From an uncultured bacterium (GTDB lineage: Bacteria; Patescibacteriota; Minisyncoccia; Phycocordibacterales; CAIZLB01): a stretch of 56,484 nt of DNA. Both the position numbers and the translations under genes were made by a program. Positions 13,384 through 44,984 of this stretch are shown piece by piece (within the stretch, counting starts at the first letter, position 1; each line of letters starts with the position of its first letter). The notes beneath the pieces are model-generated. The model searched no databases. It saw nothing but the letters and a program-made list of their open reading frames with translations, and was not told the origin of the DNA. The stretch spans positions 1-56,484 of the forward strand of contig CAIJKW010000039.1 in the NCBI GenBank assembly GCA_903821355.1, read 5' to 3'.

Positions 13384-14331
13384 CTAAACTTGCTTGCTTT
13401 CTTTACGAAAACGTTTAGTCAATTCTTCAGCCTTTTCGACCGCTTCTTTCTTCTCGGCTTCTTCAGTAGAAGTATCGTCAGCAGGTTTCTTGTCGTCCCC
13501 TGTGCCGGCTTCTTTGTCGAGTTCTACAAGTTTAGGCTGATTATCTTTAATTTCACAATACTTAGCGTATTGTTCCTTAGATAATGATTTTACAAATTCT
13601 TTCTCAGAAGTAGTGTCAGCAATTACTTTGCCATCTTTGGCAAAAGCATCAATCTTTTCTTCTCTTGAAAGTAACTCTGCGTCTGTTTGAGCTTTCTTAA
13701 ACTCTTCATTTTCTTTCTTGAATCCATCGTTCTCTTTTTTAAGAACTTCTAATTCTTTTTCGACTTTTCGAAGTTCTTCAACTTCTTTTTTCAACTGTAC
13801 AATCTCTTCCATGTTTTCTCCTTCATTATTATCTTTAATATCTTTTCTAAATATTTTTACATCTGCCATCCCCTCGACCTGCGGAATGTCTACAAATCCG
13901 AATCCCCATAAAACCTTCTCAAACAAATTACCCTGATTATCTTCATACGGACCAATCTCACTGGATCTATTTTTTAGGGTTCCTCTTTTAATCTTTTCCA
14001 TTGCATCTGGTTCAGTTATTTCAACGTCGGAAAAAAGAGATTTCCCCCGCCTATATAAATTTGTAATATACCCAATTACGCTTGAAACATCTTTTACCGA
14101 ATCATCTGTACTTCGATGACCGATTCTAACTGGTGGTTGAAAACCGACTGCTCCGTCTTTTAAAAGAGTGAAATTGGCAATCATCTCGTCTATATCCTCT
14201 TCAGTATAGGTCTTGTCACGATACGTTCCAGTCTTAAAGATTTCGACTTCTTTAAGTTCCTTTTCGTCTTTCGAGTAAACAAAAACATCTGTTGACTTAA
14301 AAGAAAATTCGTTATCTAATACTTTTTCCAT
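13384..14331 (-). CDS. scaffolding protein (possibly a protease/scaffold fusion)
   Basis: 315 aa. The C-terminal half is a highly charged E/K coiled coil (EIVQLKKEVEELRKVEKELEVLKKENDGFKKENEEFKK). Lies upstream of the decoration and capsid genes. Confidence 0.6.
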   Translation of the reverse strand: MEKVLDNEFSFKSTDVFVYSKDEKELKEVEIFKTGTYRDKTYTEEDIDEMIANFTLLKDGAVGFQPPVRIGHRSTDDSVKDVSSVIGYITNLYRRGKSLFSDVEITEPDAMEKIKRGTLKNRSSEIGPYEDNQGNLFEKVLWGFGFVDIPQVEGMADVKIFRKDIKDNNEGENMEEIVQLKKEVEELRKVEKELEVLKKENDGFKKENEEFKKAQTDAELLSREEKIDAFAKDGKVIADTTSEKEFVKSLSKEQYAKYCEIKDNQPKLVELDKEAGTGDDKKPADDTSTEEAEKKEAVEKAEELTKRFRKESKQV

Positions 14332-14386: not shown

Positions 14387-17300
14387 TTAGATAACAGTTG
14401 AATCGATAGAGTACCAATCATAACCATCATAAACTTCTAACTTATTTGTTTCGGCATTATATCCAAACTGACCTTCGATTGGTGGAGTTGGTCTTTTTGC
14501 TGTTCCCCAAACAGGCATTTTTAATGGTCCGGTTTGTATAGCAAAATCATCCACTAAATCACATGGGAACATATTAATATTCAAACGATAGTAATCATCA
14601 CTTCCAGGAGATGGGCTTGCTGACGCACTTGAACTCGATGAACTTGAAGGACTAACAGATGGGCTAATGCTTGGGGATTGGCTAGAACTTACTGAAGGAC
14701 TTTGAGATGGTGATATTGATGGAGATATTGAAGGACTAACCGACGCACTAGAAGAATCTGATGAAGATGTACTAGCCGAGACTGAAGAACTTTCGCTTAA
14801 GGAAGGACTTAAGGAAGGGGAAACTGACGCACTGCTTGACTCAGAACTTGATTCTGAGGCAGAAACACTACTCGACTCCGATACCGAAGGACTCGACGAA
14901 GGACTGACTGACGGAGAAACTGATGGACTAACGGACGCACTTGAACTTTCACTAGAACTTTCGCTAATAGAGGCGGACGCTGATGAACTTTCACTAGAGC
15001 TTTCTGATAATGATGGGCTTGATGACTCCGAGCTACTTTCTGAAACCGAAGGGCTTAACGATGGCGAGATAGAGGGTGAGACCGATTCAGACTGACTTTC
15101 TGAACTACTTTCTGAACTACTTGGTGAAGCCGATGGAGAGACACTCTCTGAATAACTAGCAGACTCGCTAGAGCTTTCTGAAATTGACGCACTAGCACTT
15201 GACGACTCCGATGATGATTCGCTAGAAGAAGGACTTACTGATGGCGAGACTGAAGCTGAAGATGACTCCGAGATACTCGCTGAGTCACTTGAACTTTCGC
15301 TACTAGATTCACTGGCACTTTCTGATAAGCTAGGAGAAACGCTAGGACTGACAGAGGGACTTTCTGAGGAACTCATACTAGCAGAAGAAGATTCACTTGA
15401 ACTTTCAGATGCTGACTCTGAACTAGATTCGCTCGAAGACGCTGAAACACTTATTGAAGAACTTTCACTTATTGAAGCGGAAGCACTTTGAGACTCAGAA
15501 CTTGATTCTGAAGCACTTTCACTAATAGAGGCGGAGTCAGATTGAGATTCAGAAACCGAAGGGCTAACCGAGGGGCTGTATGAAGCTGAGGCACTGCGTG
15601 ACGGACTACTACTCGGACTTATTGAAGGGCTTACAGACGCACTAAGAGAATTTGAGGAGCTTTCGCTGATACTTGGGCTAACAGACGGACTAACCGAGGC
15701 ACTACTTGATTCTGAAACAGATTCACTAACACTCTCAGAAACTGAGGGTGAATAAGAGGCCGATTCTGAGCTTGACTCGCTTATAGAGGCGGATGAACTC
15801 TGGGATTCAGACATTGAGGCACTAACAGAAGGAGATGCCGACTCTGAGGGTGATTCACTAGAACTCTCACTTATAGAGGCACTTTCACTCCTTGACGCTG
15901 AAGATGATTCTGAAGCACTCTCGGAAGAACTAGCAGATGCAGATTCACTGCTAGACCCAGAACTTGATTCACTTAAACTGGGACTAACAGAGGGAGAAAC
16001 TGAAGCTGATATTGATTCTGAGCTAGACTCACTCACGGATTCTGATACAGAAGGACTGACAGACTCTGAAACGGACTCAGAGACGCTTGGAGAGTAAGAT
16101 GCACTTTCACTGCTACTTTCTGAGGTGGACTCTGAAACAGAAGGAGAATACGAAGCTGATTCACTAGATGATTCTGACAAGCTTTCCGAACTAGACTCTG
16201 AAACTGATTCAGATACGCTAGGAGAATATGACGCAGATTCACTACTGGATTCGCTTAATGATGGGCTAATACTTGGCGAATAACTAGCAGACTCGCTTGA
16301 AGATTCTGAACTTGATGGACTGGCAGAGACAGAACTTGATGGACTAGAAGATTCACTCTCACTCTCGCTAGAAGATTCAGATACACTAGGGCTGACGCTT
16401 GGAGAAACTGATGGTGAATAACTTGAACTAGGACTTTGACTATCTGAAGAACTGGGACTAACCGAAGCACTACTAGAGGCACTAGACGATGCAGAACTTG
16501 ATTCACTGGGGCTAACCGATGAACTTTCACTTATACTTGCAGATGGTGAGATTGACGGGCTGATTGAGGGACTTATACTTGGGCTGACGCTTGGTGACAC
16601 GGAAGCAGACGAGCTTTCAGATATTGAAGCACTGGCAGATTGAGAGGCTGAGCTACTCGGAGATTTAGATGGACTGACCGAAGGAGAAGCAGAGACAGAA
16701 GAACTTTCGCTGATTGAAGCTGATGAACTAGATGAAGGGCTAACTGATGGACTCTTACTAGAAGAACTACTCGCAGAGCTTGACACAGAGCTAGAAGCTG
16801 AAATTGACGCTGAAGCACTGCTAGAAGGACTACTTGAGGGGGATTTTGAATTACTGCTACTAGGTGAGCTACTAGGGCTTATAGAGGGACTATACGAGGC
16901 TGACGCAGAGCTTGAAACAGAACTAGAGGGACTCCTAGAGACACTGCTAGAAGCAGAACTAGAGGGACTGATACTCGGACTATAAGACGAACTAGCCGAC
17001 TGAGAGACAGAACTACTCGGAGACTTAGAAGGACTAACCGAGGGGCTGACTGATGGACTAAATGAAGGCGAATAACTAGAAGAAGGCGAACTAGAAGGAC
17101 TGCTACTTATTGAGGCAGAGACACTACTAGATGGACTTTTAGACGGACTGACACTAGGACTAACTGAGGGAGAAACTGAAGGGCTGACCGAAGGACTAAC
17201 CGAAGGAGAGAATGAGGGGCTGTAAGAACTACTCGCACTAGAAGAAACAGAACTAGACGGAGATTTGCTTGGAGAGACTGAGGGAGACGCTGACGGGCTG

Positions 17301-19696
17301 ACGCTTGGAGAATAACTAGAGGATGGACTAGAACTAATTGAAGCTGAGACAGAACTTGAAGGACTTACACTTGGAGATGCTGAAGGACTCACGCTGGGTG
17401 AGTAGGAAGCACTTGGAGAACTACTTATTGATGGTGAGTTTGAACTGCTAGGAGATTGGCTTGGACTAGAGCTAGGACTTACAGACGGAGAATAACTCGC
17501 AGAAGCTGAACTTGAAGGAGACCGACTAGATGAACTAGACGGACTGACGGAAGGTGAGACACTTGGGCTAACCGAAGGAGAATAAGACGCACTAGCCGAT
17601 GAAGAAGGAGAAACCGATGGAGAACTAGATGGACTCTCGGAAGGACTAACAGATGGTGAGTAACTAGCAGAAGCTGAACTAGAGGGACTCCGTGACACTG
17701 AACTTGAAGCCGAGATAGAAGCACTCGGACTAGATGAGGGAGATTTTGATGAACTAGAACTAGCCGAACTAGACACGCTTGAAGAAGCCGAGATTGAAGC
17801 AGAGGGAGACCTAGAGGCACTACTAGAAGCTGAACTAGAGACAGAACTTGAAGGAGACTTAGAGGGAGAGACCGAGGGACTATAAGAAGCACTTGCAGAT
17901 GAACTCGGTGAACTTGATGGCGATTTAGACGGAGAAACTGAAGGGCTAACCGAATTAGAAGCACTGGGACTCTTTGATGGACTTACCGAAGGTGATGATG
18001 AAGCAAACCCAGTTGTAAATGTTCCATCTGATGTAAATTTTCGTGTTGTATAATCACCGTTTGTATAAACATTGTTTCCACCAGAACAGTATCCAAAATC
18101 AGAGGTTAAATATCTTATAAGAACTAAACCAGAACCACCCGCGGCCCCAGGAATAGTTCCGCCCTGAGATGCACCCCCACCACCTCCACCGCCTGTGTTG
18201 GCAGTTCCAGCTACGGGATTAGAGACATAAACTACTGACCCTGCACCTCCACCACCAGAACCGCCAGGACTTGTTCCTGCGTCTCTCCCTGCTCCCCCAC
18301 CACCGCCTATCCAATGTACTCCAGCAATATCAACGCCAGCTTCTGCGTCCTGTAGCCATGTGTTATAGGTGCTAACCCCCCAACCTCCATTACCATCAAT
18401 AGTGTCTCCATGGTTGCCAACTTCTCCAGCTCCTCCGCCTCCACCACCACAGTTGTTAGTTAAAGTAGTCGCCGCTCCCCTGTATCCTCCATATTGTAAA
18501 TGAGTATAAGACCTGCAAGTAGAGTCCCCCGGAGCATATGGAACTGTAAAAGGAGCACCCCCCCCAGAACCACCAATCCCACCAGATACTGCGGGGTTTT
18601 TCCCTCCTCCGTATCCACCACCTACAATATACATATACCTTCCGTTAAAAGAAGAAGCCTCACCTCCAGTATCTGCCGCTCCTCCATCGCCAACCGTAAT
18701 AGTATAAGCTTGGTCATTAACAGCAACAGCCGATGAATAATAAACAGCCCCAGCTCCACCACCGCCACCATTGTTATTTGATAAAGCCCCCGAACCCCCT
18801 CCTCCGCCACCACAAACCATTAAAAGTTCTATTGATTTTAAGCCGATAGAAAACTCAGACATTCCCGTTGTAAATGTATGTATTGTATTAGTCCCAGAAG
18901 TGGTAATTGTCCCACCCTTGACCAAATATGCACTAAAATCTGCCGTAACATAAGAAATAATAACAACGCCAGAACCGCCCTTACCACCAGAGCCAGCCCC
19001 AGTGTTATCAGAACCACCTCCGCCACCTCCCCCAGTATTTGAGGTACCTGCAACTCCGTTGCCCGTATTTGTTCCAGAAACACCCGCTCCTCCTCCCCCG
19101 TTACCTCCACCTCCAGCAGTACCTACGGTACATCCAGCTCCACCTCCACCAGCAAGATAGTAAGTTCCACTGACATTTTGACCAGTAGTAGAGCCAGTTA
19201 TCGGATTGGCAGTCCCTACCCCCCCTGCTCCAGCTTGAGCTGAGGTAGCATTTGCTCCGACTGCAGCAGAACCTCCTCCACCACCCCCACCATATCCAGA
19301 ACCATTATAAGCGTTTCCTCCATCGTAACCCTGCCTTGGAGAGATATAGTCAGCGTCTCCGCCATAGGTCTGTCCTCCGCCTAAGGGATAGGCACTTCCA
19401 CCGCCAGATCCCCCTACTCCACCAGCACCAGTAGATGGATATGAATCTCCTCCACCGCTTCCAATAGCAGTGATGGAACTTTCCCCAAAAAAAATAGAAG
19501 TACCCCCAGGTGCCCCCCTAGTTCCGTTGGCTGTTGCTCCAGCTCCACCATCTCCAACAATAACTGGATAAATATTTGCTTCTACTGAAACAGAAGAATT
19601 ATAAACATAGCCGCCAGCTCCACCGCCACCACCGACTCTTTGTCCACCGCCACCACCCCCAGCGACTACTACTACTTTTATATTTCCAGCTGCCAT
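14387..19696 (-). CDS. giant virion-associated protein: two Gly-rich domains, about 1130 aa of Ser/Pro/Glu mucin-like repeat, and a small C-terminal globular domain
   Basis: A 1769-aa uninterrupted ORF. Residues about 1-560 contain two Gly-rich modules (VVVVAGGGGGG...GGGGGAGGY...VIVGDGG...GSGVVIISYV, then MVCGGGGGGSG...GSGLVLIRYL). SPSxSPS then grades into SESxSES repeats. The C-terminus is GQFGYNAETNKLEVYDGYDWYSIDSTVI. Confidence 0.8.
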   Translation of the reverse strand: MAAGNIKVVVVAGGGGGGQRVGGGGGAGGYVYNSSVSVEANIYPVIVGDGGAGATANGTRGAPGGTSIFFGESSITAIGSGGGDSYPSTGAGGVGGSGGGSAYPLGGGQTYGGDADYISPRQGYDGGNAYNGSGYGGGGGGGSAAVGANATSAQAGAGGVGTANPITGSTTGQNVSGTYYLAGGGGAGCTVGTAGGGGNGGGGAGVSGTNTGNGVAGTSNTGGGGGGGSDNTGAGSGGKGGSGVVIISYVTADFSAYLVKGGTITTSGTNTIHTFTTGMSEFSIGLKSIELLMVCGGGGGGSGALSNNNGGGGGAGAVYYSSAVAVNDQAYTITVGDGGAADTGGEASSFNGRYMYIVGGGYGGGKNPAVSGGIGGSGGGAPFTVPYAPGDSTCRSYTHLQYGGYRGAATTLTNNCGGGGGGAGEVGNHGDTIDGNGGWGVSTYNTWLQDAEAGVDIAGVHWIGGGGGAGRDAGTSPGGSGGGGAGSVVYVSNPVAGTANTGGGGGGGASQGGTIPGAAGGSGLVLIRYLTSDFGYCSGGNNVYTNGDYTTRKFTSDGTFTTGFASSSPSVSPSKSPSASNSVSPSVSPSKSPSSSPSSSASASYSPSVSPSKSPSSSVSSSASSSASRSPSASISASSSVSSSASSSSSKSPSSSPSASISASSSVSRSPSSSASASYSPSVSPSESPSSSPSVSPSSSASASYSPSVSPSVSPSVSPSSSSSRSPSSSASASYSPSVSPSSSPSQSPSSSNSPSISSSPSASYSPSVSPSASPSVSPSSSVSASISSSPSSSYSPSVSPSASPSVSPSKSPSSSVSSSASSSYSPSFSPSVSPSVSPSVSPSVSPSVSPSKSPSSSVSASISSSPSSSPSSSYSPSFSPSVSPSVSPSKSPSSSVSQSASSSYSPSISPSSSASSSVSRSPSSSVSSSASASYSPSISPSSSPSSSNSKSPSSSPSSSASASISASSSVSSSASSSSSKSPSVSPSSSSSASISESSSVSASPSVSPSKSPSSSASQSASASISESSSASVSPSVSPSISPSISPSISPSASISESSSVSPSESSSASSSASSSASVSPSSSDSQSPSSSYSPSVSPSVSPSVSESSSESESESSSPSSSVSASPSSSESSSESASYSPSISPSLSESSSESASYSPSVSESVSESSSESLSESSSESASYSPSVSESTSESSSESASYSPSVSESVSESVSPSVSESVSESSSESISASVSPSVSPSLSESSSGSSSESASASSSESASESSSASRSESASISESSSESPSESASPSVSASMSESQSSSASISESSSESASYSPSVSESVSESVSESSSASVSPSVSPSISESSSNSLSASVSPSISPSSSPSRSASASYSPSVSPSVSESQSDSASISESASESSSESQSASASISESSSISVSASSSESSSESASESSSESSSASMSSSESPSVSPSVSPSLSESASESSSESSSDSASISESSSASVSPSVSPSSSESSSESSSASASISESSSESASYSESVSPSASPSSSESSSESQSESVSPSISPSLSPSVSESSSESSSPSLSESSSESSSASASISESSSESSSASVSPSVSPSVSPSSSPSVSESSSVSASESSSESSSASVSPSLSPSLSESSSVSASTSSSDSSSASVSPSISPSISPSQSPSVSSSQSPSISPSVSPSSSSSSSASASPSPGSDDYYRLNINMFPCDLVDDFAIQTGPLKMPVWGTAKRPTPPIEGQFGYNAETNKLEVYDGYDWYSIDSTVI
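14605..18003 (-). repeat. coding low-complexity repeat (about 3.4 kb) encoding SPSVSPS / SASYSPSVS / SESSSES units
   Basis: Seen in the translation. Ser codons alternate between TCN and AGY, so the DNA is only degenerately repetitive. Confidence 0.9.
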
Positions 19697-21223
19697 TTAC
19701 TTTAAAATTCCCTCTAAGTTAATATCCGTTATTTTATCTATTGTACTCTCTTGCCAATTAGCACAGGTTGTTTTGTTTCTAAATTTATCTGTGCTCCATC
19801 TATTTTCTGTAAGATTACCAGAATGGCGAATATCAAGGTTGGCAATCGCTGAGTTCCACCTATCACTTCTACCGTCTCGTGTCCCTGGTTCATAGCCACC
19901 CTTATATGTTCCTGCTTCCATTTCCTTGACTATCTTTCTATATTCTTCTATTAAAAGTTCCCTATAAGCACACATCTGAGAAGTAGAGTCGTGGTCAAAC
20001 TTAACCGCAAAGCCATCATCTCTAACTCGCCAATTATTACCGTTATAGTAGAATTTGTCCTTAGAGGGTGGTATGAAGTCAAAATGACTCTTATGGTAAA
20101 TAACGTCGTGCTCACAGAAAAAGACTACTTCTTCAGGCATCGCTTCTAAGCCTGCTAAAATCTGTTTAAACATTGTCAGCTTCCCTCTTTTGAGGTGTAG
20201 GTGAAGATTCCGACCAAAGTCCATCTTCTTTAGAGATACAGAAGTAATTGGTAAACCTGATTCCTTTATATATATACGACACAACTTAGCGATTTTCATA
20301 TTTAATTGATTGTCGGTGTAATATAAAATCCCTTTAGTCGGTGTCCAATCGGGTGGGTTAAACTTCTTTAACAACCAGTCAAAGTCGTGGACTGCCTTAT
20401 CCCAATTATTTCCTTGAAAAAGTTTGCGAGAGTATTCTCTATTCTCTTGGACTTTAGATTCAGGATTCTCGTAAGGAAAGCTGAAATCGCCACCTTGAGT
20501 TCTGAACATATGAGCGTACCAAGTCGTACGATTTATCATCACTTTCCCACCTGAGAGCCAAGTTTTACAAGCCACTTCCACCCCTTGTTGTCCCCAAGAG
20601 TTAAACTCCTCAGAACATAGGTCTAATTCCCAATACTTTTCTCTGGTAACCATAAAGCAACTACCCTGGATAGACATTGATTCGGTTAAATCCCCTGTTT
20701 GTTTCTTTCCCCAATCATTCCAATATTGAAAGTGCATTGTTTTATCAAACCTATAAGCGGTACTTTGAGGGTTTCTTTTGCCAATCCATTTAATGTCTCT
20801 CTCGGTTTCTTCACCACACTCAGTACAAACTCCTGATGGCCCCTGGTATCTTCGGTGTCCATTCTTACAGACCCAATCAAAGGCGTGTAGGTTTCTCATC
20901 ACAGGAACCATCGTAAAGTCGTCTTGCATTAGATTCATCATCTTGACATCAAAGCCTTTACCAAAAGAACAATGAGCATCGCATTTCATCAAGTATTTAG
21001 CCTTAGATAGTCTAGCGAGTTGATTGGTTAAAACTCTCTGCCCGACAGACTCTCCTGTATGCAAAATAGTAACTCTGGGATTGTCTTTAATCGGTATTTC
21101 AGCCCAATCTCCATCTAAGCCGACTAATATCTCAGTATCACCTTCCATATTTTCTAAAATATCTTCTACGGTCTTGGTGACAAAGAGTTCATTTCTCGCT
21201 GGTATAAGAATTGAGAGCATCAT
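19697..21223 (-). CDS. two-domain glycosyltransferase: N-terminal GT-A domain with ppGalNAc-T (GT27)-like motifs, C-terminal domain of unknown function
   Basis: 508 aa. MLSILIPARNE is a GT2-type start. CDAHCSFGKGF carries a DxH motif as in FLDAHCEC. WGQQGVEVACKTWLSGG parallels WGGENLEISFRIWQCGG. WYAHMFRT parallels VGHVFRK. A CxxC Zn-ribbon-like insert (CKNGH..CTECG) is present. The start overlaps the stop of the upstream gene. Confidence 0.6.
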   Translation of the reverse strand: MMLSILIPARNELFVTKTVEDILENMEGDTEILVGLDGDWAEIPIKDNPRVTILHTGESVGQRVLTNQLARLSKAKYLMKCDAHCSFGKGFDVKMMNLMQDDFTMVPVMRNLHAFDWVCKNGHRRYQGPSGVCTECGEETERDIKWIGKRNPQSTAYRFDKTMHFQYWNDWGKKQTGDLTESMSIQGSCFMVTREKYWELDLCSEEFNSWGQQGVEVACKTWLSGGKVMINRTTWYAHMFRTQGGDFSFPYENPESKVQENREYSRKLFQGNNWDKAVHDFDWLLKKFNPPDWTPTKGILYYTDNQLNMKIAKLCRIYIKESGLPITSVSLKKMDFGRNLHLHLKRGKLTMFKQILAGLEAMPEEVVFFCEHDVIYHKSHFDFIPPSKDKFYYNGNNWRVRDDGFAVKFDHDSTSQMCAYRELLIEEYRKIVKEMEAGTYKGGYEPGTRDGRSDRWNSAIANLDIRHSGNLTENRWSTDKFRNKTTCANWQESTIDKITDINLEGILK

Positions 21224-22941
21224 AGTAGCCTCGCCTTTACTGCATTAAGTCTTGCATCAATAATCGGTATGTATTCCTCGGTCATCTCTATACCGATAAA
21301 GTCATAACCTAGTTCTTTAGCAGCGACTAGGGTTGAGCCTGAACCTGCAAAGGGGTCAAGGACTACTCCACCTTCAGGGGTTATCATTTGGATTAGGTAT
21401 TTCATTAGAGCAAGTGGTTTGACAGTGGGATGGTTGTTCTTTACTGGTTTTCGTTTTTCATCGGGCGTGTTCCCCATATTCTTTCTTGACCACTCATCCT
21501 GTGCGTAGTGACCATCGTGTTTATCCTCCATCCCCTCACACCCTCTATCTCGTTCAGACTTTGAGGCTTTAGCTTGATAAATCAGAGAACGATTTAGGTT
21601 TAGACCTGTTTCCGTTTCGCTTATTGGGGTGCTGTTTTTCATGGCATCCCGCACATAACCAAAGAATAAACTCAGGTCTTGAATAGTCGGGGTGGTGTCG
21701 GTGTTTACCCTCAGCTCCGCAAAGGATGCAAGGCATTTTGCCAGGATTTGCTGCTTGTGCTCGCTGATAGAACCCTGACCAAGAATTAACTCCAGGTCGT
21801 GGTCTTGCAAGGTTGCTGCAATGCTTTGAGCAATAATTGTTCCGCATAAGTCGCACAGGTTTCCCGCAGACTTTACATTTTGGACGAGATTTTTGTCTAG
21901 CAAGCCCTCCACATTCAAGGGAGCAGTATGGTCTTTTGTTGCTTGGGTAGTCCCAGAACTCTTTGCCACATTGTTTACATTTGTATTTTTCCATACACTC
22001 ATTGTATCATAACTAGCACTAATAGGCAAGGAACAAAGAGAGCATTCTTGTGGGAAGGATTTGAAGAAACGAGCAGCAGAGCCCTCACTTGATGGAAATG
22101 ACCTTTCTGTACCAGTATCGCCAAGTCCAGAGAAGAGGTCTGTCTTACCCCTTGAGTTTCTATCTCCACCACCACTCTTCGTATTCGGAAACTCCCTTAC
22201 TACTTCATCACTATTATCGTGGAGGAGGTTGGCAGGGAAGCGACCTTGCTGTGATACTGTTTGTTCGCTACCCTCATAACCACCCTCATATACATTTTGA
22301 GCGGCCTTATCTGTTTTCCAACTACCACCAAACGTTCTTGGGTCAGTAGCACCTGTGTATTCCACCCTACTCTCATCTATATTTATTCCACCTGTACCGT
22401 ATTTGAGGACATTACCTGCGACTGTACCCTCTATGGGTTTACGAGCAAGGCAGATAGGTTCGTGGGCTGGTTTGAGGGCAGTACCCCAGCCTTCCCAAGG
22501 AGATGTGCCTTTGGTTTCAGTGGCAGTCATCGTGCCTTTTCTATCCATCAAAGCGTTGTTGCGTATATCGTGTGTTTCGTATTCTCTTACGGTTTCTCTC
22601 TCATTCCCCTGTGTCTTATCCACTGCCTTGCCGATATTCAAAGACTTAGGGAATCCACTTCCATATACCCATTCCACCATATCTCGTATCTCAAATCCTG
22701 CATCCTCTATGGCTACTGCTTGTCGGTGATAAGTACGAGTACCTGAGAAACTTAAAAGGTGTCCACCTGGCTTTAGGACTCTTAGGACTTCACGCCACAT
22801 ATCAGGGTTGTTGGCGATACCTGAGCCATCCCAGGTCTTACCCATAAAGCCGAGTTCATAGGGAGGGTCAGTTACGCAAGAGTCAACCGAGTTGTCTTCT
22901 AACTCTTTTAATTTTTCTAAACAATCACCGTGTATTATCAT
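21220..22941 (-). CDS. DNA N6-adenine/N4-cytosine methyltransferase (beta-class, DPPY) carrying an insertion of about 160 aa
   Basis: 573 aa. Motif IV is VTDPPY at the N-terminus and motif I is DPFAGSGSTLVAAKELG at the C-terminus. Family-typical GRFPANLLHDNSDEVV, SAARFF and YQAKASKSERD..NNHPTVKPLALMKYL are present, but SAARFF and YQAKAS, normally adjacent, are separated by about 161 residues. Confidence 0.8.
   Translation of the reverse strand: MIIHGDCLEKLKELEDNSVDSCVTDPPYELGFMGKTWDGSGIANNPDMWREVLRVLKPGGHLLSFSGTRTYHRQAVAIEDAGFEIRDMVEWVYGSGFPKSLNIGKAVDKTQGNERETVREYETHDIRNNALMDRKGTMTATETKGTSPWEGWGTALKPAHEPICLARKPIEGTVAGNVLKYGTGGINIDESRVEYTGATDPRTFGGSWKTDKAAQNVYEGGYEGSEQTVSQQGRFPANLLHDNSDEVVREFPNTKSGGGDRNSRGKTDLFSGLGDTGTERSFPSSEGSAARFFKSFPQECSLCSLPISASYDTMSVWKNTNVNNVAKSSGTTQATKDHTAPLNVEGLLDKNLVQNVKSAGNLCDLCGTIIAQSIAATLQDHDLELILGQGSISEHKQQILAKCLASFAELRVNTDTTPTIQDLSLFFGYVRDAMKNSTPISETETGLNLNRSLIYQAKASKSERDRGCEGMEDKHDGHYAQDEWSRKNMGNTPDEKRKPVKNNHPTVKPLALMKYLIQMITPEGGVVLDPFAGSGSTLVAAKELGYDFIGIEMTEEYIPIIDARLNAVKARLL
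21569..21994 (-). CDS. HNH homing endonuclease, overprinted in another frame inside the methyltransferase insertion
   Basis: 141 aa. Two CxxCGK...YCSxxC zinc modules, then HRHHPDYSRPEFILWLCAGCHEKQH (HNH motif). Lies entirely within the 573-aa ORF in a different frame. Confidence 0.75.
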   Translation of the reverse strand: MEKYKCKQCGKEFWDYPSNKRPYCSLECGGLARQKSRPKCKVCGKPVRLMRNNYCSKHCSNLARPRPGVNSWSGFYQRAQAANPGKMPCILCGAEGKHRHHPDYSRPEFILWLCAGCHEKQHPNKRNGNRSKPKSFSDLSS

Positions 22942-23597
22942 TTCTTGTGACTCCGATACTCCCAGTAAGGGTAATCTTTAATCTTCTTGTCCATAACTTT
23001 GACTTCAATATCTTCTCTATCTAAGACCATACTCATCGTTAATTGGTCATCTAAATGATACCTTGAATCGTAATACCACCATTCTTTGAGGGCTTGGCAA
23101 ACACCCCCACTCAACCTGTAAGCAAAAATGGCTGCGTGGTAAGCAGGAAGTTTGCCTTTGTCGCTCCCATAAATTTCGTCTATCTCGCAGTAAAGTTCTT
23201 CTAATAGTTCTCCTTCATATCGTTGTTGAAGGTACTTACTTTTAGGAAGGTTATCTCTTAGGAAATCAAATTCCTGCATTACCGTATCGTGAAAAGGGTG
23301 AGGAAAAACAAGAATGTCCATATCATCATCTTCTGTCAATTCTTTAATCAGAAACTCAACTGCTCCCTCTTTTAAGATGTAGTTAGCATCTACCCAGACA
23401 TAAAAATCATACCCAGGGATTAAGTCCCAACCAAAACATTTAGGTATTTTACTCTGAGCGTGAGGAGTGAGAGCTTTTCGTAAAGGAAAGTTCTTTTCGT
23501 TATATCTCATTATATCGGCTGGCTGGTCTACCCATTCGTTGGGTTCGTCAAAACCATTAAAGGAAGCCGAAGTGATTAAAGTTTTGTGTAAAACCAT
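22938..23597 (-). CDS. putative glycosyltransferase (DUF616 / TOD1-MUCI70-like)
   Basis: 219 aa. The pattern QSKIPKCFGWDLIPGYDFYVWVDANYIL ... VFPHPFHDTVMQE ... WWYYDSRYHLDDQLTMSMVL follows the Y.iWiDg.i / H..R / WW....s.RDQLS layout I associate with DUF616. Confidence 0.5.
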   Translation of the reverse strand: MVLHKTLITSASFNGFDEPNEWVDQPADIMRYNEKNFPLRKALTPHAQSKIPKCFGWDLIPGYDFYVWVDANYILKEGAVEFLIKELTEDDDMDILVFPHPFHDTVMQEFDFLRDNLPKSKYLQQRYEGELLEELYCEIDEIYGSDKGKLPAYHAAIFAYRLSGGVCQALKEWWYYDSRYHLDDQLTMSMVLDREDIEVKVMDKKIKDYPYWEYRSHKK

Positions 23598-24106
23598 GAA
23601 GGAAAGTCCCTTTCATTAGTTACATTTATCTTGAGACCATAGGCGTGACCCCAACCGTCAATCGCAGTTTTTACCTGACACTCAACACTACTTCTATGAC
23701 TGTTATAGTCATGTCCTGCCACTATCCCTCCTTTGTGAACCTTTTTAGACCATGTGTCAACGTCGTCAATTATGTATCTAAAGCTATGGTTCGCATCCAG
23801 ATAAACAAAATCCAAAGACTCATCTTTAAACTGCTTTACTGCGTCCATTGACCAACCTTTAATGATCGTACAAGTATAAGGTTTTAGAAGTTTTTTAGTT
23901 TCTTCATAGTATCTGTCTAATTTGTCTTGTCTAGTGTGGTCACGATAGCCCTTGTAAACCGTCCAGGCATCTATACAGGAGAGTTTTAGCTTAGGATTGG
24001 CATCTAGTAGGGTTTTAGCAAAGTAACCCCTCTCCGTGCCTATCTCAGCCCCTTTGTTAAATTTCAATTCTGCGAAATGTTTTGCTAGTTCTTCTCTGTT
24101 TTCCAT
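23576..24106 (-). CDS. class I SAM-dependent methyltransferase (Methyltransf_24/TylF-like, probably sugar O-methylation)
   Basis: 176 aa. GAEIGTERGYFAKTLL (motif I-like) and LDFVYLDANHSF are present. Embedded among the glycosyltransferases. Confidence 0.6.
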   Translation of the reverse strand: MENREELAKHFAELKFNKGAEIGTERGYFAKTLLDANPKLKLSCIDAWTVYKGYRDHTRQDKLDRYYEETKKLLKPYTCTIIKGWSMDAVKQFKDESLDFVYLDANHSFRYIIDDVDTWSKKVHKGGIVAGHDYNSHRSSVECQVKTAIDGWGHAYGLKINVTNERDFPSWFYTKL

Positions 24107-24684
24107 ATCAACTCCTTCCTAATATTTAGTCCCCAAGAATCTGTTTTTCTATGACAGCCAACACACAAAGTTGTTCCATTATCTACTTCAAACCAAAGTT
24201 CTTCATGTTCACAAAATGGTTTTATGTGGTGTGGTTGTAATGTTACTTTTTTTCCATTTCCACCCCTTATTCCACACTCTTGGCAGGTATAATTATCTCT
24301 TTCAAAAACTGACTCTCTCCATTCTCTATATTCAGAAGATTTTCTGATTGCTTTATTTCTAGGAGTAACGCCACCCTTCCAATTATAGTTATTGCTGCCA
24401 GTATTTCTTTCAATTAACATTTTTTTGACATGGTCTGGCATCTTATGTCCCATCAGTGCTTCACTTAATTTCTTCTTGGTTTCTTCTTTTATCCTATACC
24501 CCAAGTGAGCTTGTCTTATATTCTCCTTGCCCTGTTCAGACATCGGTTTGTATTTTTTGCCAAGATGGGATAATCTAATTTTATTTTTAGTTTCTTCAGA
24601 AAGTTTTTTACCAGTATTCGCAATACTAAGTTTTAGTTTAGTTTCTTCAGACGTTGGTTTACGTTTAAATATTCCTGTTGGCAT
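24085..24684 (-). mobile_element. free-standing HNH homing endonuclease with NUMOD3 repeats
   Basis: 199 aa. Repeated SEETKxKLS..xxGKK units (NUMOD3-like), then NYNWKGG, then YTCQECG...HHIKPF...NGTTLCVGCHRK (HNH). Wedged between the methyltransferase and glycosyltransferase genes. Confidence 0.8.
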
Positions 24685-24686
24685 CT

Positions 24687-25559
24687 TTACTTATCCTTTC
24701 CGTATCTAATTTGTTCTTTCCAGTCATCTGGCCAATTAGGAACAGGCCAAAATTTCTCAACCAACCAATCAAAATTATGCACCCTATTTTTTAATGGTCT
24801 ATCGTTTATCCAAAAGTCATAAGAATATTTATAACTTTCTTCCGCTTCGCCCTTGTTAAAATGATACATTCGACCGTATGTGCGACCCTTATGCAAGTGA
24901 GCATAACTTGTCGCTTTATTTGTTACCACTCGACCCCCCGTTAACCATGTTGTAAATGAGACCTCCTCACCTTCCTGGCCCCACCCTTTATACCCATCTA
25001 TTTGCATAAAACCGCATCTGTTGTACCAATCCTTGGTCATAAACCAACAACTACCCTGAATAGTCATGGTATCATCTATCATTACATCAACCCTCTCAAG
25101 TGTTCTTGAGTCCCATTTATACCCGTGAAACCCATCTCTTTGCTTAACTGGTTTCCACATCAGATATTCATAATCTATCGGTGGTCTACCTTCCTGGTCT
25201 TGAATTTCCCATCTCTCAGCGTCTAGCCTGTGTCTACGAGGTATCTGAACCCAATTAGACTGATGATCTTTAGCCAGTTGCTCATCAAAACCTTTAGCGA
25301 CTAAGCAGTGAGCGTCTAAACTCATTACATAATCTCCTCTAGACTGTCTAACCATCTCATTAACTCCGTGGCGTTTTTTCATCTCTGGCGTAGATGGTAA
25401 ACGGATATATTTAACCCGTGAATCTTCTATCAGTTCGTCTGGTTCATAACCATCTAAGACTGGGAAGACCTCAATCTCCCCTGTGGCGTTTTCCAAAACA
25501 TCTTTAATGGTTTGGTTTAGAAATTTTTCTCCTTTGCTCGGGATGCAGATACTTAACAT
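24687..25559 (-). CDS. glycosyltransferase, GT-A fold with ppGalNAc-T (GT27)-like motifs; paralogue of the N-domain of 19697..21223
   Basis: 290 aa. Motifs MLSICIPSKGE, SLDAHCLVAKGF (DxH), WGQEGEEVSFTTWLTGG (Gal/GalNAc-T-like) and SYAHLHKG. It ends FDWLVEKFWPVPNWPDDW, matching FDWLLKKFNPPDW in the paralogue. Confidence 0.6.
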   Translation of the reverse strand: MLSICIPSKGEKFLNQTIKDVLENATGEIEVFPVLDGYEPDELIEDSRVKYIRLPSTPEMKKRHGVNEMVRQSRGDYVMSLDAHCLVAKGFDEQLAKDHQSNWVQIPRRHRLDAERWEIQDQEGRPPIDYEYLMWKPVKQRDGFHGYKWDSRTLERVDVMIDDTMTIQGSCWFMTKDWYNRCGFMQIDGYKGWGQEGEEVSFTTWLTGGRVVTNKATSYAHLHKGRTYGRMYHFNKGEAEESYKYSYDFWINDRPLKNRVHNFDWLVEKFWPVPNWPDDWKEQIRYGKDK

Positions 25560-26245
25560 AATTCCTCCTTTATATATTCCATCACATCTTTAGTTGGTTT
25601 CCAATCGGGTGTCGTATTTTTTAAATTAGCGTTCTTTAATTCTCCCTTTCTCCAATCCTCATATTTGATTGGTTTACCAATGGCTTTAGCTATTTCATTT
25701 ACCGAATAATTTTGTTCTGAGCCAAAATAATAAGTTCCTGTCGGCCAGTCGATGGCTTGTTTAATCCCTCTCACTAAATCGTCAATATGAACATAGGTTC
25801 TCATCGCACTTCCATCTCCATAAATTGTGATATCTTCATTTAGAAATTTATCAATTACGCTTCGTGAACCGTGTCCGTAGACATTGGCAAAACGTAAAAT
25901 AACATAATTTTTACTCATCAGTTTGACAAACTTTTCACCACAGAACTTAGAGAGTCCGTAAGGAGATTCTATTGTTTCCTGGATTGTCCCCCCACTTGAG
26001 GCGAAGATAAATTTAGCATCTTTATAATGATTTAAGAGTCTGACCGTACCTGTAATATTGTTATTAACCGTATGTACAGGGTCTTTCATTGAGTTTATTA
26101 CCCCAGGTTGAGCTGCTAGGTGAATTACAACGTCAGCGTCAGGAAGAGGACAAGATAAAATATTCTCTCCATCCTTAAGGTCAATTCCAACATCTGAGGT
26201 TAGATGTCCCCCGATAAACCCTTTGTGCCCCGTAAGTAAGACCAT
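25553..26245 (-). CDS. compact NAD-dependent sugar epimerase/dehydratase (extended SDR)
   Basis: 230 aa. LLTGHKGFIGGHL (GxxGxxG), SSGG, and SPYGLSKFCGE (YxxxK) are present. Shorter than the usual length of about 310 aa. Confidence 0.7.
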   Translation of the reverse strand: MVLLTGHKGFIGGHLTSDVGIDLKDGENILSCPLPDADVVIHLAAQPGVINSMKDPVHTVNNNITGTVRLLNHYKDAKFIFASSGGTIQETIESPYGLSKFCGEKFVKLMSKNYVILRFANVYGHGSRSVIDKFLNEDITIYGDGSAMRTYVHIDDLVRGIKQAIDWPTGTYYFGSEQNYSVNEIAKAIGKPIKYEDWRKGELKNANLKNTTPDWKPTKDVMEYIKEELC

Positions 26246-26460: not shown

Positions 26461-28224
26461 TTAATACTCCTCGGAATAGGTTTTTTCGTTCCACGCTCTG
26501 CTAACGGCTTCTTCGGCTCTTCTTTGCGAGACAAAAACATTTTTGCTTATGTCGTATTCTTCTTTGAAGACATCCGTGAATAAATTTCGATAAATAACCG
26601 GCATCCTTCTAATATCGATAGACATATAAACTGATGCATCGATAAAGTCTGAATCTCTCGCAAGCCTAACCCCATCATTTAGAATTAACTCGGCCTTCTC
26701 AACCATCTTTTCTATTTTTTCTCCCTTAACAAACGAGTCCTGGAGACAAGAGATTATTTTTTTCTGTTTCTCGTAAAATTCATCGCCCTCTTCTTCCCCG
26801 ACCTTATCGAACATTCTTCCAACATAACCTAATTTTATTTTACTCAAATTATCGTATTGTTCTTGTAGAGTCGTGCCATCGTCGATAGATTTCCTTATCG
26901 AGTTTTCTAATCGAGCCATTTGTTTTTGAACTATCTCTTTTTTGGCTTCTTTCTTGTCAACTGGCTTTTCTTTCTTGTCAACTGGATTTCCATTCTTGTC
27001 AACCTTACCCTCAACATTGGTTGGTTCAGCCGTGACTATTTCTATCTCTTCTAATGGGATACCTAAACGCTTAGAAAGTTCTTCGGTTGAAGGTCTAATC
27101 ATCTTCCCGTTGACCATTGCCGTTACGATATTAACGATTAAATCTTCGTTTACCTTAGAAAGAGGTAGGTACTTAAATTCAGGCACTTGAGCCTTTTCTC
27201 CGAAATTATACTTAACTAAAGGTGGAACGACATATTTATTTATATACGCCGTAATGTCATCCATAATCCCCATTAAGCCTGCCAGGAAGGTCGCTTTATG
27301 TTCTTTTCCTAATTCATACGACCCCACGTCTCCTGCCCCTAAAAGTAAGTCAGGAATAAAGATAGCTCTCGCTTTTTCCATATCCAATCTTTTAAGATAG
27401 GTGTCAAAATCAACACCCCTCATTTGTGATTCTAAAATATTGATGTCATACAACTTATTTCCCTGGTCGTCAACATCGGATGGAATTGTCGCAGTGGCGT
27501 GAGACTTAACCCCCTCTAGGGTTGATTGCATAATATCCATTGCGTCTTTTTTACCACCGTAGGAATCTTCAACGATTTCATTTGGGGCTCTACCTAAAAG
27601 TAAAGGTTCGGCATACCTCTCGTAATATCGGTTCGCAAATAAATGAATAATCTCAGAGTTATACCAAGGTTTATAAGCAGCAACAAGACGACTTCTCCCG
27701 TAATAGTTTCCATCTTCCATTTCGTTTGGATACCATAAAGACTGATCTATTGGGATGTCTTCTTTCCTTGCTTCTCCTGGGAATTGAACAAACCCATCAT
27801 AGACCCCATCTTCACGAGTTTTGACAATACAAGTCTCAGGAGCAAGGTCTTTGATTCTTTTATAAATAACAAGTCCTTTATCGTCTAGGGTAAAGACTTT
27901 AACCATAGGCGAATACCCAGACCAAAAAGCCTTCGTAAAGCCTCTAATAAGTTCATTCCAAATTAATTGGATTGATTCTTCGATATGTTTTTTAGCTTTT
28001 GGACTTCCATCTTCAACATACCAATCTATTTTTTGTAAAGTAAAAGTTAGAACGTTTAGACAGGCATTTATTTGATAATCATTTCGCATCTTACGAAAAG
28101 TCGCAATTGAGATATTGCTCGGATTGTACTTCGTTCCATCTGGAAGATTGTACATATTAAAGGCATTTAATCCCCAAACGCCAGTCTTAGCATTTAGGGG
28201 GGCCTTGTTCTTTTTTGTAGGCAT
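26461..28224 (-). CDS. portal protein
   Basis: 587 aa, directly downstream of the large terminase with no gap. Acidic, coiled-coil-rich C-terminal region. Called by position and size. Confidence 0.7.
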   Translation of the reverse strand: MPTKKNKAPLNAKTGVWGLNAFNMYNLPDGTKYNPSNISIATFRKMRNDYQINACLNVLTFTLQKIDWYVEDGSPKAKKHIEESIQLIWNELIRGFTKAFWSGYSPMVKVFTLDDKGLVIYKRIKDLAPETCIVKTREDGVYDGFVQFPGEARKEDIPIDQSLWYPNEMEDGNYYGRSRLVAAYKPWYNSEIIHLFANRYYERYAEPLLLGRAPNEIVEDSYGGKKDAMDIMQSTLEGVKSHATATIPSDVDDQGNKLYDINILESQMRGVDFDTYLKRLDMEKARAIFIPDLLLGAGDVGSYELGKEHKATFLAGLMGIMDDITAYINKYVVPPLVKYNFGEKAQVPEFKYLPLSKVNEDLIVNIVTAMVNGKMIRPSTEELSKRLGIPLEEIEIVTAEPTNVEGKVDKNGNPVDKKEKPVDKKEAKKEIVQKQMARLENSIRKSIDDGTTLQEQYDNLSKIKLGYVGRMFDKVGEEEGDEFYEKQKKIISCLQDSFVKGEKIEKMVEKAELILNDGVRLARDSDFIDASVYMSIDIRRMPVIYRNLFTDVFKEEYDISKNVFVSQRRAEEAVSRAWNEKTYSEEY

Positions 28225-35821: not shown

Positions 35822-36796
35822 ATGGAAAAGTTTAGTTTAGAAAGTATCTGGAACGACACTTTGGCAAAACCGAAGAGACTTCCAAAAGAAAGAGACTACA
35901 TTTACGCATCAGAAATGGGTAAGCCATTTTACGAAAGGTGGCTTTCAATGAAGGGAACGACTCCTTCAAATCCATTAGAAGCGAGAGTCCTGAGAAAAAT
36001 GGCAACTGGACTTTGGTTTGAGGATATGATTGGTTATATCTTAGAACAAATTGGTATCTTACAAGAAAAACAATTTGAAGCGAAGATGCCAGAGACTAAA
36101 GATCTAATCGCAGTTAGTGGTCGAGGAGACTATATTGCCGGTGGGATATCAAATTGGAACGAAGCCAGGGAGAGAGTTAAAAATGCCCACTTCCCTGAAT
36201 TTGTGGAAGAAGTTTCTCTAAAATTGGTTGACTACTTTGAGCAGAAGCACCCTAAAGGCTTAATGTCCATTCCATACGAAATCAAGTCTGTCAATTCACA
36301 GGTCTTTTGGGCTAAGAAAGACTATTTAGAGGAGGCTTATCCACATCATACTCTCCAGTTATACACATACCTTAAAGCCTTAGATTTAAAGGGAGAAAAA
36401 TATCCTCTTGGCCGGCTTATGTACATCTCCAAAGATGATCTAACAATTAAGGAAATGGACATAAATTACCCAGATGAAAGATTAGAGAAAGTCTGGAATG
36501 ATGACCGACAACAAATGAGTGATTACTGGCTAAAACAAGAACAGCCACCACTCCCAGATATGATAGTCTTTGACAAACGAGGAAAGATAAACTTCCAAGT
36601 AAACAAAATCAAATACCAAATTATTGGTTGCTACAAGGACAACTGGATGGTCAAGTGGTCACAATATCTAACCGAAATGACAGGCTTTAAAACTGAAGAT
36701 GATTGGCTTGATTCACTTAAACCTGAACTTAAACTAAAGAACGATGATATCAAAGAAAAATATATCTTCGACCATAAATTAAAGGAGGAGAAATGA
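35822..36796 (+). CDS. PD-(D/E)xK family nuclease (recombination exonuclease-like)
   Basis: 324 aa. GRGDYIAGG ... PYEIKSV gives a D...E-x-K arrangement. Sits in the replication/recombination block. Confidence 0.45.
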   Translation: MEKFSLESIWNDTLAKPKRLPKERDYIYASEMGKPFYERWLSMKGTTPSNPLEARVLRKMATGLWFEDMIGYILEQIGILQEKQFEAKMPETKDLIAVSGRGDYIAGGISNWNEARERVKNAHFPEFVEEVSLKLVDYFEQKHPKGLMSIPYEIKSVNSQVFWAKKDYLEEAYPHHTLQLYTYLKALDLKGEKYPLGRLMYISKDDLTIKEMDINYPDERLEKVWNDDRQQMSDYWLKQEQPPLPDMIVFDKRGKINFQVNKIKYQIIGCYKDNWMVKWSQYLTEMTGFKTEDDWLDSLKPELKLKNDDIKEKYIFDHKLKEEK

Positions 36797-39503: not shown

Positions 39504-39532
39504 ATGAGTAAGTCGGGCTTAGATAAAGTAAA
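39504..39532 (+). repeat. 29-bp direct repeat, left copy (the first 29 nt of the methyltransferase gene)
   Basis: ATGAGTAAGTCGGGCTTAGATAAAGTAAA, identical to 40205-40233. Confidence 0.95.
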
Positions 39533-44585: not shown

Positions 44586-44984
44586 ATGCCAAGTTGGAAC
44601 ACGAGTAAAAACAGACCTGCCGACACTCGATGGTCAAAATACATTAGAACCGAAGCCAGAATGTGCCAATTTGGAATTACTTGCCAACCTAAAGAGAGAT
44701 ATAAAGAGGACGGATCCTTAGACATTAGCTATATGGATTGCGTCCATTTTTATGGTCGGAGAAAAGAAAGCACTCGGTTTGATTCTCAAAATACGCTTAG
44801 CGGATGCAAGGGGTGTCATAAATATTTACACAACCATCCGACCGAGCATAAAGAATTTATGAAAAAATTTCTTGGAAAAGATTTTGACCTTTTAACAATT
44901 CGTGCCAACACCCCTTTAGGTATGCCAAAAGAATTTCAAGACAATAACGTGATTTTATTTTGCAAACAAAAGGAGAAAGAATGA
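44586..44984 (+). CDS. NinG/Rap-like Cys/His nuclease-type protein
   Basis: 132 aa. ADTRWSKYIRTEARMCQFGITC...CVHFYGRRKESTRFDSQNTLSGCKGCHKYL follows the FS.yIR.R...C..C...H...R....R.d..N....C..CH layout of NinG. Confidence 0.4.
   Translation: MPSWNTSKNRPADTRWSKYIRTEARMCQFGITCQPKERYKEDGSLDISYMDCVHFYGRRKESTRFDSQNTLSGCKGCHKYLHNHPTEHKEFMKKFLGKDFDLLTIRANTPLGMPKEFQDNNVILFCKQKEKE

Follow-up and report, generated by a model that had tools for sequence, protein, structure and literature searches.

A candidate O-glycosylation cassette next to a giant serine-tract gene in the late operon of an uncultured tailed phage

The stretch analysed here, positions 1 to 56,484 of contig CAIJKW010000039.1 (GenBank assembly GCA_903821355.1) and called the window below, is a segment of a tailed-phage genome. 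Its minus strand carries a late operon in the order small terminase, large terminase, portal, a 12-kb insert, prohead protease, a lambda-D-like decoration protein, an HK97-type major capsid protein, tail tube, tape measure and tail proteins, while the plus strand carries a replication module, a second cluster of sugar genes and the endolysin. The subject of this report is the insert, in which two glycosyltransferases (GTs), named GT290 and GT508 for their lengths in amino acids (aa), accompany a giant gene whose product contains a very long serine tract. In the direction of transcription the insert reads: a short-chain dehydrogenase/reductase (SDR) epimerase, GT290, an HNH gene, a Methyltransf_24 gene, a DUF616-like gene, a DNA methylase, GT508 and the gene of the 1769-aa protein. 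An earlier reading of this DNA, made without database searches and referred to here as the sequence-only reading, had singled out the same block, and all of the open reading frames (ORFs) that it claimed are present on the minus strand; the gene that it took for a scaffold, downstream of the insert, is actually the head maturation protease. The features on which the argument turns are the following.

26461..28224, minus strand: portal
14387..26245, minus strand: the 12-kb insert, between portal and prohead protease
24687..25559, minus strand: GT290, a short GT27/GT60-like GT-A enzyme of 290 aa (PDB sequence search, profile, AlphaFold2 model, Foldseek)
19697..21223, minus strand: GT508, a two-domain GT of 508 aa (paralogy, PDB sequence search, AlphaFold2 model, Foldseek)
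14387..19696, minus strand: giant protein of 1769 aa (ORF)
17981..19696, minus strand: two Gly_rich_2 domains of the giant protein, aa 1-~572, a probable globular "head" (PF21722, phrog_2295)
14606..17980, minus strand: (S-x)n serine tract of the giant protein, aa ~573-1697, the proposed O-glycosylation substrate (composition)
14387..14605, minus strand: module of ~70 aa at the C-terminus of the giant protein, before the stop codon (phmmer)
13384..14331, minus strand: prohead (head maturation) protease (phrog_976)
2651..4249, minus strand: 532-aa tail protein with a Ser/Pro tract (translation, PHROGs)

The giant gene begins where GT508 ends, the TAA of the one abutting the ATG of the other with no spacer. 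Both GTs had been described as lying directly upstream of it, which is correct for GT508; GT290 lies 5 kb further up. The N-terminal part of the giant protein is matched by PF21722 (E 1.4e-34, best stretch aa 284-529) and by phrog_2295 (E 1.5e-47, aa 4-277), and a sequence search of the PDB with this glycine-rich region gave nothing significant. The serine tract that follows had been estimated at about 1130 residues and measures about 1125, with the motifs quoted for it all present. It contains 670 Ser (60%), 123 Pro, 82 Ala, 78 Val and 73 Glu; Thr is nearly absent. Serines at S-x-S spacing occur 566 times, in a first half that is rich in proline (SPSxSPS) and a second half that is rich in glutamate (SESxSES); the commonest motifs counted were SPSVSPS (34 copies), SESSSES (20) and SASYSPS (12). 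Among NCBIfam models, the ClfA SD-repeat region and "serine-rich protein" gave compositional matches far below their cut-offs. Neither an N-terminal signal peptide nor an LPXTG anchor is visible in the translation.

The tract is repetitive as protein and not as DNA. Tandem Repeats Finder detected only two tiny arrays over 6 kb, and all six serine codons are intermixed in the tract, where AGY codons are far commoner than in the globular part. The scrambled codons and the lack of a DNA repeat argue that selection has acted on the composition of the peptide, and a simple-sequence artefact was rejected on these grounds and because the flanking domains are recognised. That the ORF is a real gene also follows from its length, a 5.3-kb open frame in DNA of 40% GC with Pfam-recognised domains at its flanks.

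The C-terminal module was matched by phmmer to the C-termini of Ser-tract proteins at two of the metagenomic loci described below (L007, E 1e-17; L018, E 9e-12) and weakly by phrog_8309, and Pfam and PDB sequence searches with it were without significant match. It is common to Ser-tract proteins whose N-terminal domains differ, recurring on these two carriers, and may be where such proteins attach to the virion. Its pattern, ...MPVWGTA.RP..P.EG.FGYNAETN.LE.YDG..W, also ends the proteins encoded at 13995-16331 of L007 and 3621-8171 of L018.

A second protein with the same repeat vocabulary had been pointed out among the tail genes, and this is borne out by the 532-aa protein, which has a tract of ~218 aa (nucleotides ~3131..3784) between N-terminal and C-terminal globular domains; 117 of 233 windowed residues are Ser. 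For the C-terminal domain the PHROG matches are to tail fibres and minor tail proteins (E 1e-6 to 7e-3). This protein is a second candidate substrate.

GT508 and GT290 are paralogues (30% identity, E 1e-37), as had been claimed, and the motifs quoted for the pair, MKCDAHC / SLDAHC, WGQQGVEVACKTWLSGG / WGQEGEEVSFTTWLTGG and YAHMFRT / YAHLHKG, are all found in them. GT290 consists of a catalytic domain alone and ends at residue 290. GT508 begins with a GT27/GT60-like domain into which a Cys/His knuckle is inserted, and a second GT-A-like domain makes up its C-terminal part. As single sequences, both matched only polypeptide GalNAc-transferases in the PDB, GT290 at E 3e-6 and GT508 at E 6e-6. Family profiles, built from 41 homologues of GT290 and 43 of GT508, again had GT27 structures at the top, with E values of 7e-7 to 1e-4 over positions 3-259 of 284 for GT290, and of 5e-7 to 7e-3 for GT508 over the region of the Gal/GalNAc-T motif only (positions ~161-273 of 523). 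Generic GT2 structures (3bcv, SpsA, GalT1) matched just the first 80-100 residues of both profiles, at E of at least 9e-4. In the comparison of GT27 with polysaccharide-type GT2 that had been proposed as a check, GT27 therefore comes first for both enzymes and GT2 reaches only an N-terminal part.

Predicted structures point in the same direction. The AlphaFold2 model of GT290 (pLDDT 91.6) retrieved GT27 enzymes for all of its top 50 Foldseek matches in the PDB (E ~4e-15, TMq 0.6-0.73), and the top 50 for GT508 (pLDDT 92.1) were GT27 enzymes together with the chondroitin polymerase of E. coli K4. The GT27 matches of GT508 fall on its N-terminal domain. The K4 enzyme has two GT-A domains and aligns across ~555 columns of GT508, so the C-terminal half of GT508 is predicted to be a second GT-A domain; Pfam has nothing for it. 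Within that half, E371 and D373 are invariant. The secondary matches of the phage enzymes, chondroitin polymerase and beta4GalT7, which aligns weakly (E 0.03) to the Gal/GalNAc-T motif region of the GT290 profile, are members of the GT7/chondroitin polymerase families that neighbour GT27 and GT60 in one clade.

The metal ligands were compared by alignment rather than by 3-D superposition. In GT290, D82, H84 and H221 are invariant among the 41 homologues and align to D209, H211 and H344 of GalNAc-T1, its Mn ligands (PMC4202792). In GT508, D82, H84 and H238 are invariant among the 43 homologues; the distal histidine aligns to the ligand position, and the DxH aligns to that of GalNAc-T1 only below threshold and to the DxH of GT290 in the alignment of the paralogues. 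The D, H, H ligand set expected for the two enzymes is thus found. Replacement of DxD by DxH is restricted to GT27 and GT60 (Taujale et al. 2020, PMC7185993), both of which are families of polypeptide Ser/Thr O-glycosyltransferases, forming one clade with GT7 and chondroitin polymerase; GT60 occurs only in prokaryotes and protists (PMC7185993). Taken together with this confinement of DxH, the sequence, profile, fold and ligand comparisons place both phage enzymes in the DxH clade of polypeptide Ser/Thr O-glycosyltransferases, with predicted Mn ligands intact. The label could be GT27, GT60 or a neighbouring lineage.

Two further observations concern GT508 and its relatives. Its knuckle, at aa 119-136, has three invariant cysteines (C119, C133 and C136) and a histidine, H123, that is conserved in at least 90% of the family; it is present neither in the short paralogue nor in GT27 structures, and could bind zinc or help to recognise the substrate. 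Furthermore, six metagenomic relatives of 1051-1352 aa (P0300, P0306, P0307, P0309, P0311 and P0314) contain two or three GT27/GT60-like stretches per chain.

The two enzymes belong to a family that is well populated in metagenomes. At 90% identity the relatives of GT290 form at least 1303 clusters; at 50% identity there are 317 (E <= 1e-30). With GT508 as the query, at least 5954 clusters were returned, both paralogues included. The closest relative of GT508 (P0121) is 92% identical and lies on a 40-kb contig. By tblastn, the two GTs found nothing among 50,697 GenBank phages, and megablast of the insert block against the same set gave no match. Among genomes, 14 of the 23 matches of the GTs came from metagenome-assembled genomes (MAGs) of Patescibacteria, the Candidate Phyla Radiation (CPR). 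The sole genome match of a portal profile was one distant Streptomyces prophage, and the link to CPR bacteria is a property of the GT family, not of the backbone of the window phage.

Retrieval of metagenomic loci gave 67, of which 61 are distinct (numbered with the prefix L). All of them show one cassette, consisting of GT290, Methyltransf_24, a variable set of genes and GT508, the variable set being made up of DUF616-like GTs, additional methyltransferases and the C-terminal domain of GT508 as stand-alone genes. In the phages the cassette is characteristically followed by a Ser-tract gene. Where at least 1 kb of sequence is available downstream of the long GT, which defines an informative locus, the next ORF on the same strand encodes a Ser-tract protein in 18 of 31 cases, or in 22 of 35 if one includes four loci where the long GT has a short form. 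The tracts of these adjacent genes are about 120-1350 aa long, and start and stop codons often overlap or abut; at several further loci, a tract gene directly precedes the short GT.

As a control, 80 IMG/VR loci were fetched with the portal profile, and the 79 of them that lack the GTs add up to 853 kb, with 603 ORFs that reach 150 aa. Ser tracts of 150 aa or more are present in 24 of the 61 cassette loci and in none of these 79 loci of portal-related phages, which have one tract of 95 aa (Fisher p = 9e-11 by locus, 4e-7 by ORF). One related locus whose portal is 52% identical to that of the window (L068) has neither the GTs nor Ser tracts across the 21-kb stretch examined. Outside the tract, the carriers are unrelated to one another, having Gly-rich domains, LamG-like domains (by motif inspection only) or domains matching tail, minor-tail and baseplate-hub PHROGs; the Ser-tract proteins of L021 and L031, for instance, carry tail-protein domains. 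Fusion of the tract to unrelated domains argues that the conserved partner of the GTs is the tract itself and not any one protein. The connection between GTs and Ser repeats, at first only a guess, has thus gained strong comparative support from conserved synteny and the 79-locus control set.

Expanded versions of the cassette were seen on contigs of Patescibacteria MAGs (L050, L056, L059 and L060), with up to three or four paralogues of the short GT and up to five Methyltransf_24 genes. The cassettes of L050 and L059 adjoin host genes (by eye, a two-component system, TatC and TypA), and on these CPR contigs there is usually no Ser-tract gene within 10 kb, as is the case for L050 and L059.

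The remaining genes of the insert, and the sugar genes of the plus strand, are listed here with their principal matches.

25553..26245, minus strand: SDR nucleotide-sugar epimerase/dehydratase, 230 aa, first cassette gene after the portal (PF01370, E 6.6e-28; phrog_540, E 1.4e-40)
24085..24684, minus strand: NUMOD3+HNH homing endonuclease (PF07460, E 7e-10; PF01844; many HNH PHROGs)
23576..24106, minus strand: Methyltransf_24 class I SAM methyltransferase (PF13578, E 3e-15; weakly TylF, E 0.029)
22938..23597, minus strand: TOD1/MUCI70 (former DUF616)-like putative GT, 219 aa (PF04765 via homologues)
21220..22941, minus strand: N6/N4 DNA methyltransferase, 573 aa (PF01555, E 3e-38; phrog_67, E 1e-78)
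44960..55268, plus strand: second glycan cluster, ~10 kb (Pfam)
44960..46171, plus strand: GT4 of the second cluster (Pfam)
55425..56156, plus strand: endolysin

The epimerase is the compact SDR enzyme that the sequence-only reading had recognised in the block; its best NCBIfam match is GalE, far below cut-off. NCBIfam had no model for the Methyltransf_24 protein, the DUF616-like protein or either GT. A sugar-type methyltransferase had also been claimed, and here the 573-aa protein was rejected as a sugar enzyme since PF01555 marks it as a DNA methylase, leaving the Methyltransf_24 protein, by its predicted substrate, as a candidate sugar O-methyltransferase. One to five copies of Methyltransf_24 are found in nearly every related cassette, and the PHROGs label for its family is "DNA methyltransferase". 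The DUF616-like assignment fails for the window protein taken alone (E 0.083, sub-threshold) and is supported through its homologues, about 33 of 57 of which have PF04765 in precomputed annotation, two of them together with PF03407, a nucleotide-diphospho-sugar transferase; the gene occurs in a subset of cassettes. The second cluster is internal to the phage genome, with the replication module on one side and the endolysin on the other. It comprises one GT4, four GT2, a hexapeptide acyltransferase, two methyltransferases, two SDR dehydratase/epimerases, an HNH gene, a UDP-Glc/GDP-Man dehydrogenase-like gene (268 aa, truncated-looking) and a sugar-phosphate nucleotidyltransferase, and would be connected to the Ser-tract system by shared theme only. 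Cassette, giant gene and second cluster together occupy ~22 kb of the 56-kb window, or ~40%.

The explanation that we favour, with moderate confidence, is that the block is a phage-borne module for cytoplasmic O-glycosylation of proteins, whose substrates are the long (Ser-x)n tracts of fibre or tail proteins. It is supported in part by the presence of an epimerase, methyltransferases, extra GTs and a nucleotide-sugar pathway on the same phage. When the late genes are expressed, one DxH enzyme or both would move a hexose or HexNAc from a UDP-sugar to serine hydroxyls of the tract. The glycan could then be extended by the second GT-A domain of GT508, by the DUF616-like GT and possibly by GT4 and GT2 enzymes of the second cluster, with the methyltransferase or methyltransferases (Methyltransf_24) O-methylating the sugars. 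Nucleotide sugars would be supplied by the epimerase and by the second cluster, with its nucleotidyltransferase, dehydrogenase-like protein, two SDRs and acetyltransferase. Once densely glycosylated, the tract would become an extended bottle-brush stalk that resists proteases, up to ~0.3 um long for 1125 residues if the extension is mucin-like. In the giant protein this stalk would stand between two glycine-rich globular domains and the short conserved C-terminal module, and in the 532-aa protein the tract would be a spacer within a tail component. As predicted from the genes alone, the phage probably makes heavily glycosylated, mucin-like fibres. The sequence-only reading had arrived at O-glycosylation of the Ser repeats by inference, and the enzyme clade, the synteny and the control set, all of them genomic evidence, support it.

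Several observations weigh against this reading, beginning with the enzymes themselves. Their identity to GT27 is just 17-22%. Pfam gives Glycos_transf_2 only, with no match of either GT to Glyco_transf_7C (PF02709) at E <= 0.1; the Gal/GalNAc-T motif region aligns to GT27 chains despite this. Formal membership of GT27 is unproven: a catalytic domain with similarity above that to GT2 and the DxH with its distal histidine are found, and recognition by PF02709 and a ricin-type lectin domain with a type II membrane anchor are not. Animal GalNAc-transferases favour Thr, of which the tract has essentially none. As for the 1769-aa protein, its glycosylation, the sugar, the acceptor and its incorporation into virions are things that we infer. 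Finally, a number of cassettes have no tract nearby. About 40% of the informative loci are without an adjacent Ser-tract gene, and of the 21 loci from genome_contigs, mostly Patescibacteria/CPR MAGs, just 2 have tracts of 150 aa or more. Upstream of the cassettes of at least three of these loci, L050, L059 and L066, lie ordinary host genes (FtsH, TypA and TatC, judged by eye from N-termini), although L066 nonetheless encodes a Ser-tract protein of 908 aa. Where tracts are missing, the GTs must have other or distant acceptors.

This last group of loci is also what gives substance to a different explanation, in which the glycan made by the cassette goes to some other acceptor, such as a capsid or tail-tube protein (the situation in mycobacteriophages), a polymer of the host envelope, or a lipid-linked or free polysaccharide, and the Ser tracts are bare spacers that happen to share an accessory hotspot. 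The tract-less neighbourhoods of L050 and L059 would fit such an arrangement, as would the second, polysaccharide-style cluster in the window and the interpretation of sugar genes in Patescibacteria phages as O-antigen-type auxiliary genes (PMC12911398). Set against these are the essential absence of Ser tracts from the 79 GT-less related loci, the immediate adjacency that is kept across differing backbones and tract carriers, and the polypeptide acceptors for which the DxH clade (GT27/GT60) is known (PMC7185993). On balance this explanation appears unlikely.

The window also encodes, at 44960..46171, an enzyme of the GT4 fold class, which initiates glycosylation in the serine-rich-repeat (SRR) and SD-repeat systems, and this GT4 could be the true initiator, a further point against the favoured explanation. 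A different enzyme of this kind would then start the glycan on the tracts, and the GT27/GT60-like enzymes would only extend it, sugar onto sugar. Known bacterial Ser-repeat systems do begin with GT-B/GT4 enzymes (GtfA/B, SdgA/B), and Glycos_transf_1 genes lie near the cassette of L003. The clade of the phage enzymes includes enzymes with sugar acceptors, namely GT7 and chondroitin polymerase (PMC7185993). A GT4 was found beside the cassette only in L003, however, among the four loci with Pfam annotation, the other loci not having been screened for GT4, and the constant partners of the tracts are the two DxH enzymes. DxH, in turn, is specific to families with polypeptide acceptors (PMC7185993). 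We therefore regard initiation by a separate GT as rather improbable. It is very hard to believe that the GTs hypermodify phage DNA or that the giant ORF is a non-coding low-complexity artefact, since, for all that DNA-glycosylating GTs of phages are known (cited in PMC12619734) and the window has genes for two DNA methyltransferases, one within the block, no hydroxymethylase or base-hypermodification match occurs among the scanned window ORFs and the fold is that of polypeptide GTs, while the ORF is open for 5.3 kb, scrambled in its codons, flanked by recognised domains and matched by homologous architectures at many loci. The control set and the immediate adjacency across differing backbones count against this reading too.

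If the cassette does glycosylate Ser tracts, as favoured above, it combines features of systems that are otherwise distinct. The resemblance to the GT27 enzymes with which animals and protists begin mucin-type O-glycosylation lies in the two-subdomain GT-A layout, in the DxH and distal histidine and in the WGxE "Gal/GalNAc-T" motif; searches of the PDB with the phage GTs, by sequence and by fold, return GT27 enzymes first and almost nothing else. The presumed acceptor, too, is a dense Ser-rich, Pro-containing tract of low complexity. The phage enzymes differ in lacking the ricin-type lectin domain and the signal anchor, no hydrophobic N-terminal segment being visible in either translation, and are predicted to be cytoplasmic. 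They also have WGQEG / WGQQG in place of the WGGEN of GT27, the long paralogue adds the Cys/His knuckle and the second GT-A domain, and the phage tract is one of Ser without Thr. GT60, the sister family of GT27, comprises polypeptide alpha-GlcNAc-transferases of protists together with uncharacterised prokaryotic members; its enzymes have no lectin domain and some are cytoplasmic. On their DxH and their want of a lectin domain, the phage GTs could belong there.

On the substrate side the nearest counterparts are the SRR glycoproteins (GspB, Fap1 and PsrP) and the SD-repeat proteins, which have very long (Ser-x)n tracts with globular binding domains at their flanks. Indeed, the phage repeat, being purely Ser and of the (S-x)n type, is closer to these bacterial SRR adhesins than to the Thr/Pro-rich mucins of animals. 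In the SRR and SD-repeat systems the initiators are GT-B/GT4 enzymes (GtfA/GtfB and SdgA/SdgB), and the substrates are bacterial adhesins with accessory Sec export and cell-wall anchors. O-glycosylation there is cytoplasmic, the GT genes lie beside the substrate gene, and further GTs extend the glycan (PMC5207161, PMC6973325, PMC3794999). In the window, by contrast, the neighbours of the tract gene are GT-A enzymes with DxH, in the context of a phage structural operon, and the only GT4 seen is 25 kb away on the other strand; no Sec genes were found among the scanned window ORFs. Without an adjacent GT4 pair, export genes or a wall anchor, the window system is not a member of the SRR-protein/accessory-Sec system.

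Among phages, Freeman et al. are said to have described in 2023 the mycobacteriophages Che8, Corndog and Myrna as glycosylating their own structural proteins, with glycans on the C-termini of major capsid and tail-tube subunits. The capsid and tube proteins of the window show no such extension, and the candidate substrate is instead a dedicated Ser tract of kilobase scale. By analogy, then, the function would resemble the glycosylation of SRR/SD-repeat adhesins and of mycobacteriophage virions, and the ancestry of the enzymes would resemble that of mucin-type initiation. In the literature searched we came across no account of a pairing between GT27/GT60-like enzymes and Ser tracts, whether in phages or in CPR bacteria. 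To our knowledge, only a few phages are documented to have glycosylated virions, and the initiation of mucin-type glycosylation counts as a eukaryotic invention.

A broader proposal can be made, tentatively and with less than even confidence: uncultured phages, together with some chromosomal loci of CPR bacteria, may hold a prokaryotic counterpart of mucin-type O-glycosylation, in which soluble initiators of the GT27/GT60 clade, relatives of the eukaryotic mucin initiators, would place dense O-glycans on kilobase-long Ser tracts and so form sub-micron bottle-brush virion fibres for adhesion or shielding. Were the O-glycosylation module real, a widespread metagenomic cassette (the 317 clusters given above) would endow phages with mucin-like fibres, with effects on adsorption, protease resistance and recognition. 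It would provide small, soluble, lectin-free polypeptide O-glycosyltransferases with natural substrates, possibly useful for bacterial glyco-engineering, and it would be relevant to how the GT27/GT60 clade arose. A further lesson would be caution over the default reading of phage sugar genes as host-directed "auxiliary metabolic genes".

Some minor features of the window remain to be recorded. The HNH gene of the insert is a mobile intruder that stands outside the glycosylation chemistry. An HNH gene occupies the same junction between the short GT and Methyltransf_24 in L013 (8034-8567), L014 (8784-9317) and L033 (10850-11422) but most cassettes lack it; it could be a mobile element with the conserved cassette as its homing target. 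A second HNH gene, at 49596..50054, interrupts the plus-strand sugar cluster. The 573-aa DNA methyltransferase is split by an insertion of ~250 aa that has no family match, its PF01555 pieces covering aa 2-210 and 457-561, and an uninterrupted paralogue is encoded at 39504..40208 on the plus strand. The window contains no tRNAs. The large terminase (28225..30909, minus strand, 894 aa) appears from its translation and PHROG coverage to contain an intein of ~350 aa, beginning ...NMCLDYDTDIF and ending ...GMVVHNS, and terminase PHROG matches return only past about residue 480. In the early region, 35822..36796 on the plus strand encodes a 324-aa protein that matches PHROGs of Cas4-domain/PD-(D/E)XK exonucleases (E 4e-11).

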